A stretch of DNA of 64,000 bases from Candidatus Saccharimonadota bacterium. Lineage in GTDB: Bacteria > Patescibacteriota > Saccharimonadia > Saccharimonadales > JAXHNE01. The position numbers and the translations under genes are program-made. Positions 7,683-25,129 of this stretch are shown here, piece by piece. Every line of letters begins with the position of its first letter. Position 1 is the first letter of the stretch. The DNA lies in the NCBI GenBank assembly GCA_034520885.1, contig JAXHNE010000009.1:66431-130430 (forward strand). Reading direction: 5' to 3'. A model generated the notes under the pieces. It saw nothing but the letters and a program-made list of their open reading frames with translations. It had not been told where the DNA came from and searched no databases.

Positions 7683-7976
7683 GTGAGTAAAAACGAAATT
7701 CAGTTTCCTCCGAGTGGCAAGCGTCGCAACGACGCGTTAGTGGACGTGTGGAGCGTAGTGCACTTCGCGGTGGCCGCCGGACTCGCGGTTTTTATCGGGC
7801 CGCCGCTTGCTTTGTTGGTGACGTTGTTGTGGGAACCGGTGGAAATTTTGGTGCTTTCTCCTTTGCTCGGGAAATTTGGAATCGACTTCGGCCACGAGTC
7901 GCTACAAAATTCGCTTTCCGATATCGTATTTAACGTGTTGGGTATTTTGTTTGCCATCTACGCGCTCGGCGCTTAA
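7683..7976 (+). CDS. membrane protein, hypothetical
   Basis: 97-aa hydrophobic ORF, GTG start. Confidence 0.45.
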   Translation: MSKNEIQFPPSGKRRNDALVDVWSVVHFAVAAGLAVFIGPPLALLVTLLWEPVEILVLSPLLGKFGIDFGHESLQNSLSDIVFNVLGILFAIYALGA

Positions 7977-7987
7977 CATGAACCCAT

Positions 7988-8266
7988 ATGGACATTGAAA
8001 TATCACGGCAATCAGAGGACGAGAACGGTTTCACGTTCAAGGTATCGGTTGCCGGGCACACCTACGAAGTAACGCTGGGTAGAGAGTATTATCAAAAGTT
8101 AACGGATGGCAAAGTGGTGCCGGAGGAATTGCTGCGCAAATCCTTTGAATTTTTACTGGAAAGGGAAGGGCCGGGATCAATTTTACCGAGCTTCGACCTC
8201 CCGCTCATCAACACCTATTTCCCGGAGTACGAAAGCGAAGTAATAAACAATTTAAAAAGCGAATAA
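7988..8266 (+). CDS. hypothetical protein
   Basis: 92-aa ORF, no motif recognised. Confidence 0.45.
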   Translation: MDIEISRQSEDENGFTFKVSVAGHTYEVTLGREYYQKLTDGKVVPEELLRKSFEFLLEREGPGSILPSFDLPLINTYFPEYESEVINNLKSE

Positions 8267-20153: not shown

Positions 20154-20723
20154 TTATGAATTTAACACTTCATCTAATAACTCAGGAAACTCGTCTGTTC
20201 CCATGCTCCTAAAAGTAAAATGCCCAAGATGAAACTCTCGGTATTTTATATTTTCAATGCTATCTCGAATTTCTTTGACGGACTTTTGTATCCCCTCTCC
20301 ATCGTTATCCGAGTGAAAAATGGTTATGCCATTCGTACGCTTGGCGAGCCCCGGATCAATTATAAAATCCCCGAAATAATGGTCATCGCTGTAGTGCCAT
20401 CCCAGTGATGGGGCAACCAAGACAACTTTACCTACAGTGATATCTTTATTATCGCTTAGATATCGCAACCAAAATTCTCCACCACGACTATGACCAACAA
20501 TAATTGTGTTTGAGTTAATATCAAAACGTTCAACTTCCTGTTTCCATAAATCCCAATCTGGGTGGAATGCATTCGGGACTTCTGGGGTTGCAGCAGCAAT
20601 ATCATTCTTTAACAACTGTGCTTGCAGCCACGCAATCCAGTGAGCATTACTCATGCTTGGGCGTTCTGGGTCGTAGTATTCTTCTTTGCCGGGTTGACCG
20701 TGCAGAATAATTGCGTTTTTCAT
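20154..20723 (-). CDS. alpha/beta serine hydrolase (YdeN/RBBP9-like)
   Basis: ILHGQPG..HW..WL, GHSRGG nucleophile elbow, LVAP. Confidence 0.7.
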   Translation of the reverse strand: MKNAIILHGQPGKEEYYDPERPSMSNAHWIAWLQAQLLKNDIAAATPEVPNAFHPDWDLWKQEVERFDINSNTIIVGHSRGGEFWLRYLSDNKDITVGKVVLVAPSLGWHYSDDHYFGDFIIDPGLAKRTNGITIFHSDNDGEGIQKSVKEIRDSIENIKYREFHLGHFTFRSMGTDEFPELLDEVLNS

Positions 20724-20831
20724 GTATGTATCATATCAGAAAAATAATAATGACCCCTGATTTAGGGGTTATATCTTTATGCTTGGTAGACGCGACTGGA
20801 TTCTCACGACCTCTGATGGCATAATCAGGGT

Positions 20832-21290
20832 ATGTTTGATAACTGTGAAGTATGCAAAGTTTTACCGCAGAACAATCCTATTTTTGAAACCGATAAATGG
20901 GTGGCGACTCTTGCGTTTGACCAAGGATATCTCGGTAGGGCATATATAACGCTCAAAGAGCACAAAGGCGACCTGAAGGATTTGAGCGAAGAAGAGTGGC
21001 TAGAATTCTCTAAAGTGCTTAAAAAGTACGAAGCTGGCGTCCGCAAGGCCTTTAATGCTGAGATGTTCAATTGGACCTGCTTAATGAATAATGCCTATCA
21101 AACACAGCCTTCTCAGCCCCATATACACTGGCATGTGAGACCTCGATATTCAACAGAGATAGAATTTAAAGGTAAAACATATAGCGACCCGGAATTTGCT
21201 CATCACTATGATCGAAACCAGAAGAATTTAGTTAATAGTGGAGTATTGGACGCTATTAACGAAGAAATAAAGAGCTGTTTGTCTGATTAG
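20832..21290 (+). CDS. HIT (histidine triad) family protein
   Basis: HIHWHVRPRY histidine triad; TGgCATAAT box ends 6 nt before ATG. Confidence 0.8.
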   Translation: MFDNCEVCKVLPQNNPIFETDKWVATLAFDQGYLGRAYITLKEHKGDLKDLSEEEWLEFSKVLKKYEAGVRKAFNAEMFNWTCLMNNAYQTQPSQPHIHWHVRPRYSTEIEFKGKTYSDPEFAHHYDRNQKNLVNSGVLDAINEEIKSCLSD

Positions 21291-21389
21291 TCGCGGTTCT
21301 ATGTACAAATCTGTAGATTTGACAGAATTCGCCCCACCGACCTACGCCCAGCAAAGCTGTGCGGGTCGGCGGTTCGAGGACTCACCAGC

Positions 21390-21429
21390 AAGATAAAAGA
21401 CCCAATCTTTCGACTGGGTCTTTTATCTT
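21390..21429. terminator. 15-bp perfect hairpin with flanking A/T runs (bidirectional terminator-like)
   Basis: aagataaaagaccca-N10-tgggtcttttatctt. Confidence 0.7.
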
Positions 21430-21537
21430 GGTAGAGCAGACAGGTCTGGAACCCCTAACAGGGGTTAATGAGACAAATGAGACACCTAAAAATGGAGTCT
21501 CAAAAACTACTGATTAACTGTCCTCAGGTTGGTATTA

Positions 21538-21546
21538 TGGTATAAT
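21538..21546 (+). promoter_or_regulatory. extended -10 promoter TGgTATAAT of the RT leader
   Basis: consensus box; 6 nt downstream begins repeat R1 (21553). Confidence 0.6.
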
Positions 21547-21552
21547 ATAATA

Positions 21553-21712
21553 GTCATCAATGGCATCGGCTCTTGCTTAATGCACCAGCCGGTAAGCAGT
21601 TTCATTACTGCGCCAATTGAGGTGGCGCTGACCTACGCTAAGATGCTGGTAGCGAACATAAAGGCATTAACCTTACTGTTTGTACTAACCTTTAACCTTA
21701 GTTGTAGTCCAC
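21553..21712 (+). repeat. RT-leader direct repeat R1 (160 nt)
   Basis: 155/160 identical to R2; mismatches at 21624, 21628, 21632, 21633, 21670. Confidence 0.95.
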
Positions 21713-21936
21713 TCCCGCTTGGAGGCACCGTTAACGGTACAACTCAAATCTCTTGGGTTAACGGATTACAAATGTTTAAAAGCGATGGAAAAGAACAGGG
21801 CGAAACTTCATTTATGATGATAATTTCACAACAATCTCAATGCTCCTGCAGTGGTTGCGCACTGGTACTCTTGCGAAAGCGAGTAAACCTAGAAAATACC
21901 AACCTAAATATGCAGATTGACATAAGTGGAAACTAT

Positions 21937-22096
21937 GTCATCAATGGCATCGGCTCTTGCTTAATGCACCAGCCGGTAAGCAGTTTCATTACTGCGCCAA
22001 TTGAGGTAGCGTTGAGTTACGCTAAGATGCTGGTAGCGAACATAAAGGCATTAGCCTTACTGTTTGTACTAACCTTTAACCTTAGTTGTAGTCCAC
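21937..22096 (+). repeat. RT-leader direct repeat R2 (160 nt)
   Basis: offset exactly 384 nt from R1. Confidence 0.95.
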
Positions 22097-22157
22097 CAAC
22101 GCCTTTGTTAATATAGCGGACCCGAAGTTGATTCGCCGAGAGACTATTTGGCATCAT

Positions 22158-23408
22158 ATGAAATTAATTGAAAAAATTTCGACCCCAGCGCAAATGAAAA
22201 AAGCCTGGAGAAAGTTATCGAAAAACCCTACTTCAAGAGGTCTAGACAGACTGACGATAGCTGAATTCGGTGGAAATTTTGATGAACATTCAAGAAGAAT
22301 AAGAAAACAGTTAAGGTCTGGTACTTATAAATTCGAGCCCTTGAAAGGTGTTGTTATTCCAAGGGCTGGTAACAAAACTCGTTTAATAAAAATATCTACA
22401 GTGAGTGATCGGCTGGTTCAGAAATCGATTCAACTTACAATTCAGTCGAAACTCCAAAAGAAGTATGAACTAAAAAACCCTGCAAGTTATGCATATCTTG
22501 AAAAGCGTGGAATTTCTGATGCAGTTGAAAAGATAAGAGAGTTTTACTCGGCTAATCAGCGTTTTGTACTTGAGGCAGACATTAAAAGCTTTTTTGATGA
22601 AGTTAATAGAGATAAACTTCTTGAAGAGATGATCTTCCCGACCTTGCCCGATGATTCCATAAATGACTTAATTAAAGATGCTATTTCTTCAGAGCTTGGA
22701 AACAAGAAAGATCTTATTGAAGCCAATAAATGGGAAAGGTATTTCCCGGATGAATTGAGCGGCATACCTCAGGGCAGTATACTTTCACCTCTTTTTTCAA
22801 ACGTATATCTAAGTTCACTTGATAAAGCGATGTTAGATAATGAGTTTAATTTAGTAAGGTATGCGGATGACTTTATTGTTCTGTGTGAATCGAAGGACAT
22901 TGCAATCGACGCCTACAAATTGGCCGTAGACACACTAAGTAAACTTGAGCTTGAAATGCACGATCTTTATGTATCGATACGGCGGAAGGCTAAGCCGGAT
23001 AAGTATAGTGAGGTCACTCACTTTACAAAAGGTTTTAATTTCATTGGGCTAAGATTTATCGGAAGCAAAATTTATCCATCCCCCAAAGCCATCAACAGAA
23101 TGAATGATGTAATGGAATCCTTTCCTGGGGAAGCTACGTTTCTTGATGACCTTCATGCAATTAATAGAAAAGTTAATACTTGGGGCTCAACCTATAGGTT
23201 TACAAACTATAATAAAAAACATATCTATGAACCTCTTAATAGAAAGCTGACTGAAGCATTCAAAAGGACTATAGACAAATATGGACTACAGCTAAAAAAA
23301 CCTAGCGACAAGTTCAGTCTTATGCAAAAAATTGGGATTAAAACTTTCGATGAATCTTACACCTACCATCAGAGCAATTATCTTAACCGGAAGAGCGACG
23401 AGAAATAG
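22158..23408 (+). CDS. reverse transcriptase, group-II-intron-like, no endonuclease domain
   Basis: RT blocks IPRAGNKTRLIKISTVSDRLVQ / ADIKSFFDEV / GIPQGSILSPLFSNVYL / RYADDFIVL / FNFIGLRF / NTWGSTYRF; alternative TTG start 22128. Confidence 0.9.
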   Translation: MKLIEKISTPAQMKKAWRKLSKNPTSRGLDRLTIAEFGGNFDEHSRRIRKQLRSGTYKFEPLKGVVIPRAGNKTRLIKISTVSDRLVQKSIQLTIQSKLQKKYELKNPASYAYLEKRGISDAVEKIREFYSANQRFVLEADIKSFFDEVNRDKLLEEMIFPTLPDDSINDLIKDAISSELGNKKDLIEANKWERYFPDELSGIPQGSILSPLFSNVYLSSLDKAMLDNEFNLVRYADDFIVLCESKDIAIDAYKLAVDTLSKLELEMHDLYVSIRRKAKPDKYSEVTHFTKGFNFIGLRFIGSKIYPSPKAINRMNDVMESFPGEATFLDDLHAINRKVNTWGSTYRFTNYNKKHIYEPLNRKLTEAFKRTIDKYGLQLKKPSDKFSLMQKIGIKTFDESYTYHQSNYLNRKSDEK

Positions 23409-23537
23409 CTTTTAGAGTTTTCTTTTAAGTACTAGTTTTTTTATTTCCTCCTCACTTTCGTGAGCGCGCTTGCCGATGTACCCCCCGCCTTCCTCTTTAG
23501 TTCTTCTGTTTATGTACTTAGTGCTCACACAAAATCA

Positions 23538-23780
23538 TCAATCATCTAAGCTATTATCGTGGTATAATTCTTCCTGCCTATCCGACAATTCATTGTCCTT
23601 TCCCTGCTGATAAATGTAGTACCACCATACAGAAATAAAACTCGCTGCAAATAATGTCCAGCCCCCATCTGTTTGACGAAGATAATAAACAAAAAACCCC
23701 AAGAGTATAATCGTTGCTAGAAGACACGACAAAGAGTTTATTCCATGCAGTCTGTCTCTGGTTTTTTTATGACTCTTCAC
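23538..23780 (-). CDS. 2-TM small membrane protein, hypothetical
   Basis: GTG start 5 nt after ggaggt SD; two hydrophobic helices; convergent with RT. Confidence 0.55.
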   Translation of the reverse strand: MKSHKKTRDRLHGINSLSCLLATIILLGFFVYYLRQTDGGWTLFAASFISVWWYYIYQQGKDNELSDRQEELYHDNSLDD

Positions 23781-24063
23781 CTGTACCTCCTAAATAAGAT
23801 AGTGTGTAGTCTTACAGCTACGCTTTTCTATACTCACTGTAAGTATACTATCATCTGTTACATAAAGTGTAGCTGGATTAAGAGATTGTATTTAGATGTG
23901 TTAATTTATGGCAGTTTGCGGGGGAAGACTTCCGCCGCCGTTTCACACCTTACAGTAATCTGATTGCAGACTACTGAAAAGTGGAAACTTTGGCGGACCT
24001 TGCTTCTCGTCCTCCCTCCGTAAAAAGAACAAAAGCCCAGGATTGAACCTGAGCTTTTCTTCT

Positions 24064-24138
24064 TGGTAGCGGGGGGAGGACTCGAACCTCCGACCTTGTG
24101 GTTATGAGCCACACGAGCTGCCGCTGCTCTACCCCGCG
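24064..24138 (-). tRNA. tRNA-Met (CAT), initiator-like
   Basis: cloverleaf read by hand; anticodon loop CTCATAA; C1xU72 mismatch and A11:U24 resemble bacterial initiator tRNA; encoded CCA. Confidence 0.85.
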
Positions 24139-24238
24139 TTATCGGCTTGTAGATAATTCTACAAAAGCAGTCTATAACGTAACAGATGAGGCGCCGGTGG
24201 TCAAGTGACAATTAAGGTATAATAAAGTCGGAGGGCGA

Positions 24239-25129
24239 ATGGCATCCAAGAAACATGTTGCCCGTGTACGTCGCGAATTAAAAGCAGCCGGTGTAACGCC
24301 ATACGGGTTTTTAAAACTGAGCACTCGTTACGTCCCCGAAGTCGTGCAGCTGGACGAGCGGATAGGTGGCGCGGTGTATGGCTGGGGAATAGTGGGCGGC
24401 TCCGCCGTGTTGATTGCGACCGATCGCCGAATTTTATTCATAGACAAAAAGCCGTTTTTTCAAACCACCGACGAACTGACGTACGATATCGTTTCCGGCG
24501 TAAAAATCCATACCGGCGGCCCGTTTTGTACGGTGATTTTGCACACCAGGCGCAACGACTACCGTTTGCGCTATGTCAACGAAGACTGTGCCCGCAACTT
24601 TGTTAAATTTATTGAACAGCGCCGCATCCACCCCGGGCGTTACGATCACCAGAGCGGGGAATTTACGCACGCGGAGCAAGAGCAAGATCAACCGGGCCAA
24701 CAAACGGCCGCCCACAGTGAAAACGCCGCGTCGTTCATTAACGCGCATCACGTAGGGATTCTTTCCACCGTGAATCATCGCCGGCCGCACGGATCTGTCG
24801 TGCAGTACATGGTGGATGAAAATGGCTACATTTACCTGGCCACCACGCCGGACAGCCGTAAAGTACAAAATGTCGTAAGTAATCCGCAGGTTTCACTCAC
24901 GGTGTTTGAGCTGGAAACGGAGATGACCGCCCGGCTGGAAGGCCACGCCAGTATCGAGCAAAACCATAACAAGATTATGGAGGTCACCAACGAACTGTAT
25001 AAACATAAAACCGCGCAGTACGAACGCTTTACGCAGAACGTGTCCATGCACCAGCAAGACCTGGTGATTATCAGGATTGATCCGTCCCGGATGGAGCTGA
25101 CCAACTACCGTAAAAAGCAAAACCATTAG
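24239..25129 (+). CDS. bacterial PH-domain / PNPOx-like fusion protein, paralog 2
   Basis: ATDRRILFIDKKPFF..DELTYDIVSG; colinear with 8276-9178; SD ggaggg. Confidence 0.7.
   Translation: MASKKHVARVRRELKAAGVTPYGFLKLSTRYVPEVVQLDERIGGAVYGWGIVGGSAVLIATDRRILFIDKKPFFQTTDELTYDIVSGVKIHTGGPFCTVILHTRRNDYRLRYVNEDCARNFVKFIEQRRIHPGRYDHQSGEFTHAEQEQDQPGQQTAAHSENAASFINAHHVGILSTVNHRRPHGSVVQYMVDENGYIYLATTPDSRKVQNVVSNPQVSLTVFELETEMTARLEGHASIEQNHNKIMEVTNELYKHKTAQYERFTQNVSMHQQDLVIIRIDPSRMELTNYRKKQNH

Follow-up and report, generated by a model that had tools for sequence, protein, structure and literature searches.

Why should a reverse transcriptase (RT) gene be preceded by two near-identical copies of a sequence that, together with the spacer between them, can be read through in a single phase without meeting a stop codon? 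This is the question raised by a locus in the 64,000-nt stretch of a Candidatus Saccharimonadota contig (JAXHNE010000009.1) analysed here, the whole of which we call the window. The window locus itself is designated W and is described in the coordinates of that stretch; related loci, fetched around homologues of its RT, carry L-numbers (L004, L008 and so on). We think that the leader and the RT gene are best explained as one unit, that is, an RT of the group-II-intron-like (G2L) kind provided with its own template RNA. We further propose, tentatively and with slightly less than even confidence, that this RT copies the leader by homology-guided template switching, and that the resulting tandem cDNA would encode a repetitive membrane protein.

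A direct repeat read in one open phase

All features of the leader given below lie on the plus strand. A repeat search finds in it a single 160-nt direct repeat, with an upstream copy (R1) at 21553-21712 and a downstream copy (R2) at 21937-22096. The two are 97% identical, differ at exactly 5 of 160 positions (offsets 71, 75, 79, 80 and 117), and start 384 nt apart, which confirms the period of 128 codons proposed in the initial annotation of this DNA. R1 and the 224-nt spacer (21713-21936) make up the 384-nt unit, of which the leader holds 1.4 copies; no further copy of the leader exists within the 64-kb window. A linker of 61 nt (22097-22157) separates the end of R2 from the RT gene (22158-23408), which encodes 416 amino acids from the ATG at 22158 (a TTG at 22128 is an alternative start).

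In the frame of position 21553 there is no stop across R1, spacer and R2, which are read in one phase for 187 codons up to a TAG at 22114-22116. The other five frames contain 8-28 stops per two units (the antisense frames 4-11 per unit), and the open reading frame (ORF) at 21529-22116 is the sole long one in the leader region. The initial annotation was therefore right that one frame, in the codon phase of R1, stays open for more than a period. In the comparison with shuffled sequence that it proposed, on 20,000 dinucleotide-preserving shuffles of the W unit, the sense frame was open in 14 and any frame in 30, and the divisibility of the period by 3 is a further chance factor of 1/3 beyond this frequency. 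It is true that a single locus with five mismatches cannot alone show selection, and one might imagine a recent duplication that fell incidentally 384 nt apart with one frame open. With a shuffle frequency of 7e-4 at W, and the same property recurring in six further lineages with unrelated sequences, we find chance hardly credible. The mismatches themselves read as first described, two of the codon differences between R1 and R2 being synonymous (GTG/GTA, Val; CTG/TTG, Leu) and the rest exchanging Thr and Ser (ACC/AGT) or Thr and Ala (ACC/GCC).

Each repeat copy encodes a hydrophobic window of 19 residues (21643-21699 and 22027-22083). AlphaFold2, run on the single sequence of 187 residues, predicts helical structure for the two R parts (pLDDT about 70) and a mostly unstructured linker of low confidence, the overall pLDDT of 47 making the model usable only for the R helices. 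Codon usage in this frame is marginally above a stop-free composition null (P=0.04) and similar to that of the RT gene, which is not decisive. The 187-aa product has no homologue among 5.8 billion proteins at E<=0.01 and no match in Pfam, NCBIfam or PADLOC; on these searches we reject the possibility, raised at the outset, that the ORF is a conserved conventional protein.

The W transcript is predicted to start at R1 (about 21553). An extended -10 element, TGgTATAAT, is found at 21538-21546, and R1 begins 7 nt past it. Because GGTATAAT is over-represented (7 copies in the window against 1.85 expected, a number reached in 0 of 100 shuffles) and one copy precedes a clear gene start at 24239, this element is probable, and the RNA is expected to begin at R1. 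A -10 element of the TGGTATAAT type ends 4-9 nt before R1 in the Patescibacteria-type loci W, L008, L172, L256, L258, L260 and L004, in the last as the variant TATAAG (TGGTATAAG). The TTG at 21529, which had been placed upstream of the transcript start, indeed overlaps the -10 element. The accompanying observation that the ATG at 21580 has no Shine-Dalgarno (SD) sequence also stands, although as an argument it is weak, since only about 28-44% of the window's long ORFs show one. The whole leader folds better than its shuffles (z -3.4, from 20 shuffles only), and the region after R2 gives no folding signal (z -0.6 to +0.8).

As for the RT, its only Pfam match is RVT_1, and it aligns over positions 3-347 of 353 with the NCBIfam model of group II intron RT/maturases (TIGR04416; 200.9 bits, cut-off 300). 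Its YADD active site does not vary across an alignment that includes 31 homologues. A search with Rfam detects no intron RNA at E<=1 within 20500-24500 and none in 12 of 12 repeat-bearing loci, while domain V (RF00029) is detected in 6 of 6 distant control loci. Because the protein is intron-like and the intron RNA is absent, the W RT is, judged from its sequence, a G2L RT with an intact active site, this group being defined as the RTs closest to those of introns that come without intron RNA (PMC8632793). No relative above 32% RT identity was found in IMG/VR, plasmids or phages. In PADLOC the best-scoring named DRT profile is UG17 (6e-42, positions 4-289 of 429, the RT domain only), and Drt2 (7e-19) falls far below the RT and UG17 profiles. 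Membership in DRT2 is ruled out by these scores, the NCBIfam Drt2 model (NF041746) matching no more than residues 201-323 and yielding 63.2 bits where the cut-off is 390; a retron was likewise rejected (54 bits for the St85 model against a cut-off of 235, and no inverted repeat pair flanking the leader).

The end-to-end alignment with the intron maturase model, at the score just given, would also be expected of a decayed mobile element, be it a degenerate group II intron or a diversity-generating retroelement (DGR) that has template and variable repeats. DGRs have two direct repeats of roughly 100-150 nt adjoining the RT, and the pair of direct repeats beside the W RT resembles these. We nevertheless hold such an origin to be very improbable. 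A group II intron is ruled out by the Rfam search with its positive controls, which detected 6/6 control introns and no intron RNA in the window or the 12 related loci. A DGR is ruled out by the mismatch spectrum (G/A, C/T, C/G, C/T, A/G), in which only 1 of the 5 differences is counted as involving adenine in either direction, and by the position of R1 at the promoter, that is, at a transcript start and not at the 3' end of a target gene. Moreover, the two copies are 100% identical at several loci, and the RT has the motif SPLFSN rather than the SQ of DGR-type RTs.

The repeat-flanked leader in related loci

Is this arrangement peculiar to W? With a leader defined by a direct repeat of at least 80 nt ending within 130 nt before the RT start, the R-spacer-R architecture is specific to the RT clade of W: it is present in 13 of the 16 close-clade loci (11 of them distinct, L004/L005 and L256/L257 being the same loci in two assemblies) and in one of 183 loci with more distant RTs, namely L025, which groups with the family in a rough tree. 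A metagenome scan added one usable locus, L088, among the matches listed. The repeat is 92-234 nt long, the period 273-474 nt, and the gap between R2 and the RT gene 40-75 nt. Three loci of the close clade (L009, L011 and L174) have no detectable repeat before the RT, and in L174 a tRNA gene stands there. Several short Logan contigs, each assembled from a single run, begin either about 30 nt inside the end of R2 (L001, 1-82) or about 90 nt before the RT (L169, L170, L259), so that the repeat appears to break the assembly graph, and many family members will be without their leader in public contigs.

The sequences of R are unrelated between most lineages, and R1 and R2 of one locus are 95.6-100% identical. 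The three loci with a period of 273 nt (L008, L256 and L258) are the most telling: R1 and R2 are 98-99% identical within each of them, and R is 70-75% identical between them. Because identity within a locus far exceeds that between loci, the copies are being homogenised, as in concerted evolution.

The initial annotation had suggested that homologous leaders, too, should keep a period divisible by 3 and one open frame. This is so in 9 of the 13 loci, W included, which represent 7 lineages, and it fails in the four others (L036, L088, L171 and L010). The units that are multiples of 3 and stop-free in the sense frame measure 384 nt in W, 315 nt in L168, 354 nt in L172, 288 nt in L260, 273 nt in each of L008, L256 and L258, 339 nt in L004 and 474 nt in L025, a long-read assembly in which 262 open codons are present in the genome. 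Shuffled versions of these units have an open sense frame in 14 to 1048 cases per 20,000. Raw spacings of 340/341 (L004/L005), 297 (L006) and 473 (L025) are affected by alignment or assembly artefacts, which the alignments trace to a 1-nt patch in R2 only (L004/L005), a gap of Ns (L006) and, close to the 5' end of R, an indel of 1 nt (L025). The repeat architecture is thus the common denominator of the family, and the endless frame the property of one large part of it.

In the four other loci, which are of a Bacteroidota type, the sense strand encodes a complete, homologous small protein whose reading frame begins in or close to R1 and stops in the spacer (L036, 3426-3695; L088, 2428-2802; L171, 3543-3752; L010, 3476-3733), with a hydrophobic stretch in R followed by the motifs SVxISFE..V[Y/H] and KKxAKxRKN. 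In R2 of L171 and L010 the start codon and the helix are repeated, and would give a truncated peptide of about 30 amino acids.

Every open unit, at all loci, encodes one 19-residue window with a Kyte-Doolittle value of 1.65-2.05, always inside R, and a hydrophilic spacer; the hydrophobic segment is therefore a protein property common to the open units despite their unshared sequence. The helix region of L008, L256 and L258 shows conservative replacements and many synonymous changes, and in L256 a compensated 1-nt shift alters the peptide and leaves intact both AAAATTTACAACAA, a nucleotide motif, and the period of 273 nt. The apparent targets of selection are openness, phase and the hydrophobic segment, plus some RNA or DNA motifs, including TAGCGGAC after R2. 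This last motif lies in the linker of W at 22114-22121, where it spans the stop of the sense ORF; it is common to W, L008, L256 and L258 on the 3' side of R2, the RTs there being only about 36% identical, and it provides the ORF stop in W, L256 and L258 and is read in another frame in L008. AAAATTTACAACAA, present in the L008 and L256 spacers and shortened by one base in L258, is kept regardless of frame. Two units have more stop-free frames than expected: two sense and one antisense in the 273-nt unit of L256 (2546-2818), and one sense and one antisense in L260 (2546-2833).

In L004 and L172, which belong to two different RT subclades, a patch present in R2 only (an indel plus a substitution; L004, 381-390 against 720-730; L172, 2100-2115 against 2455-2470) replaces the Cys codon by TAA or TAG in a Trp-Cys pair that immediately precedes the helix. 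R1 keeps TGC, R1 and the spacer remain open, and R2 is near-identical to R1 past the stop. In L005 the stop patch is also present in R1, either through a swap during assembly or as a variant produced by conversion. R1 and R2 of L260 differ by an in-frame indel of 3 nt.

Around the leader, the neighbours of W are housekeeping genes. Upstream, a hairpin terminator (21389-21430) follows a HIT-family gene, and between it and the leader promoter lies a tRNA-3'-end-like TGGTAGAGCAGACAGGTCTGGAACC (21428-21470), with a related stretch at 20774-20799; ARAGORN calls no tRNA at either fragment, and a full tRNA-Met is found at 24064-24138 (minus strand). The two fragments could be marks of an old integration site. 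Directly 3' of the RT is an 80-aa hydrophobic ORF (23538-23780, minus strand) that has no Pfam match and is found on the opposite strand at the matching position (1466-1708) of the contig of a 98%-identical strain, L001; a promoter-like GGTATAAT at 23561-23568 (plus strand) points antisense into it. Among the relatives, the flanks of L004, L174 and L260 carry genes for serine recombinases, GIY-YIG, PIN/MazG or zeta-toxin-like proteins and a rolling-circle Rep, which suggests that related loci lie in mobile or accessory islands; L004 also has a LOOT RNA at 7900-8015 (minus strand).

Possible uses of the leader

What, then, might the leader be for? In the mechanism that we propose, the RNA, which is predicted to start at R1, has an A-B-A' layout (R1, spacer, R2) that ends about 60 nt before the RT gene, and the RT would copy it toward its 5' end. 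The cDNA made on R1 could then re-pair with the near-identical R2, after run-off or by copy-choice, and synthesis would resume through the spacer and R1, yielding head-to-tail cDNA repeats of 384 nt, (R-spacer)n. Because every unit keeps the phase, lacks stops and encodes one helix and a linker, a product of more than one unit would encode a longer repetitive membrane protein, terminated by the stop that lies within R2 or directly behind it. If DRT2 and DRT10 are a guide, such a protein would be a toxic or defence effector that acts conditionally.

The same frame can, however, be read as the first gene of an ordinary two-gene operon, made of a small membrane-protein gene and the RT, in which the R copies are alike by recombinational gene conversion and no multi-unit gene arises. 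Translation would begin either in the spacer, at an SD-led start, and continue through R2, or in R1 and extend to R2, and the RT might use the RNA for single-pass cDNA, for an antisense regulatory cDNA or for autoregulation. The relatives speak in favour of this. In L172, L260, L008, L256 and L258, which represent three lineages, the best SD with an in-frame start falls within the spacer, at a distance of 195-231 nt from the beginning of R1; its duplex (dG -7 to -12 kcal/mol) is equal to or stronger than the SD of the RT genes of the same loci, and the ORF that follows, which stops 3-50 nt short of the RT or overlaps it, predicts a small protein whose helix lies at the C-terminus. Gene callers report ORFs of 125-143 aa at these starts, and the Bacteroidota-type relatives encode their complete small protein with its own stop. 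The extra third-position changes in R, the in-frame indel of L260 and the want of an internal promoter agree with such an operon, and an ORF spanning R1 to R2 would make a period divisible by 3 automatic. In view of the strong SD and in-frame start in the spacer of several relatives, an ordinary one-helix protein is likely to be translated from the genomic copy, and the opinion of the initial annotation that the ORF is not a normal gene was too strong.

We still think that an operon and nothing more, although a serious rival, is the less likely account of the locus. It leaves unexplained why a helix-coding copy should stand exactly at the transcript start, why R2 should be 97-99% identical to R1 past the premature stops of L004 and L172, and why an out-of-frame R2 should be kept up in the Bacteroidota-type loci. 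In every open-class lineage, moreover, the 22-30 codons between the end of R1 and the SD-led start contain no stop and keep the phase, with a rough chance of about 0.1 per lineage, which goes beyond the needs of an ordinary ORF beginning at the SD. W, L168 and L004 have no clear equivalent of that start; W, L168, L172 and L004 have no usable start at the 5' end of R1, and the W product, as said, is without a homologue.

Several points weigh against tandem copying and should be stated together. No cDNA, concatemer or longer array has been observed, and no locus exceeds 1.4-1.5 copies, the long-read L025 included. There is no promoter-like site inside the unit (21553-22116) and no new junction would be created, so that expression of a sense-strand concatemer is unexplained. 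The W RT lacks an RNase H domain that could release the cDNA. In four relatives R-spacer-R is retained and the frame is closed or out of phase (L036, 363 nt; L088, 389 nt; L171, 322 nt; L010, 335 nt), and the endless ORF is therefore not family-wide. Among L008, L256 and L258 the third-position excess is modest in R, and a codon-position signal is absent in most of the spacer. Finally, all loci are metagenome assemblies, in which repeats are prone to misassembly, as the difference in R1 between L004 and L005 and the N gap of L006 illustrate. The likely translation of the genomic copy belongs to the same side of the balance.

One of these difficulties would vanish if the RT were not needed at all. 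Direct repeats of this kind (92-234 bp, separated by about 150-240 bp) are known to recombine, and chromosomal recombination or slippage between R1 and R2 could vary the number of 384-bp copies behind the native promoter, giving a repetitive membrane protein of variable length. An open unit in phase would be equally relevant, the native promoter would settle the expression problem, and assemblies of one population do differ inside the leader. We judge this improbable all the same. R2 always lies 40-75 nt before the RT gene, and the repeats are absent at 182 of 183 other RT loci, a tie which argues for involvement of the RT; in addition, no assembly with 0.4 or 2.4 copies is seen, not even the long-read L025, and copy-number change does not require R1 to stand at the transcript start.

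If tandem copying is correct, the synthesis of repeat genes by RTs is not peculiar to DRT2. It would be a recurring solution, found here in a separate RT lineage whose template logic rests on long homology where DRT2 uses ACA, and whose coding strand is the other one. Such an RT would, in addition, by nature produce tandem copies, both long and precise, of templates several hundred nucleotides in length. Going further, and with somewhat greater reserve, we consider it possible that a second, independent origin of gene building by RTs lies in the G2L RTs of Saccharibacteria, other Patescibacteria and some Bacteroidota. Their giant A-B-A' template would carry a 273-474-nt unit with its own ribosome-binding site, a polymeric membrane toxin would be held in the genome as 1.4 units, and the stop found only in R2 would act as a safety catch in two lineages. 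To our knowledge, G2L RTs have no known function, and few defence or toxin systems are recognised in Patescibacteria. Even if the operon account is right, the R-spacer-R leader, whose copies evolve in concert, represents a conserved element of RNA or DNA that is linked to an RT and of which we found no description; our literature search (one 2026 preprint not covered) returned none of a G2L RT with a repeat-flanked coding leader.

Comparison with known reverse transcriptase systems

One point of comparison is the other G2L RTs, one of which, G2L4, is linked to DNA break repair. The W RT resembles the G2L RTs already described in being encoded by a chromosomal, stand-alone gene, and differs in its leader, neither a repeat-flanked leader nor an embedded ORF being mentioned for them (PMC8632793 and the literature search). 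The position of R1 also recalls the R region of retroviruses and minus-strand strong-stop transfer, in that a repeat lies at the 5' end of the RNA and a downstream copy can accept the nascent cDNA. In retroviruses, however, the second R is at the 3' end of the genome, and one transfer builds long terminal repeats and not tandem arrays.

For DRT2 (UG2; Wilkinson et al. 2024 and Tang et al. 2024), ORFs formed from repeat units are established, the neo ORF being antisense to the non-coding RNA (PMC12039810). The parallel with DRT2 drawn in the initial annotation holds as far as a unit divisible by 3 and stop-free in one frame across the joins is concerned. The likeness extends to an RT gene preceded by its own template RNA, to a hydrophobic product with no known domain and helical models of low confidence, to a ribosome-binding site and start inside the unit (here in the relatives), and to the very idea of a longer gene that would exist only after reverse transcription. 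The parallel fails on several other counts. The RT lineage is G2L here and not UG2; the ORF is in the sense of the RNA and not antisense to it; the unit measures 273-474 nt against 111-129 nt in DRT2, and the homology available for the jump 92-234 nt against ACA trinucleotides. In the present locus the genome already contains 1.4 copies and all the junctions, no promoter is rebuilt at a junction, and no pseudoknotted non-coding RNA has been identified in the leader.

In layout, the locus resembles DRT10 (UG17, formerly G2L3), whose A-B-A' template has been shown experimentally to drive the synthesis of tandem-repeat cDNA (PMC12632851). The differences are considerable: in DRT10, A measures 4 nt and the unit about 9 nt, whereas the corresponding values here are 160 and 384 nt (about 40-fold larger), and DRT10 is protein-primed, has a separate SLATT gene and makes a non-coding repeat DNA. 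No SLATT gene is present at W, whose neighbours are the HIT protein and the 80-aa ORF, and none is called in the related loci. UG17 is the named DRT profile that fits the W RT best (in its RT domain), and in both cases a membrane protein is the partner of the RT, SLATT there and the helix-coding ORF here. W shares with DRT10, and conceptually with telomerase and the ACA-flanked template of DRT2, an A-B-A' arrangement in which the downstream A' would re-align the cDNA made on A.

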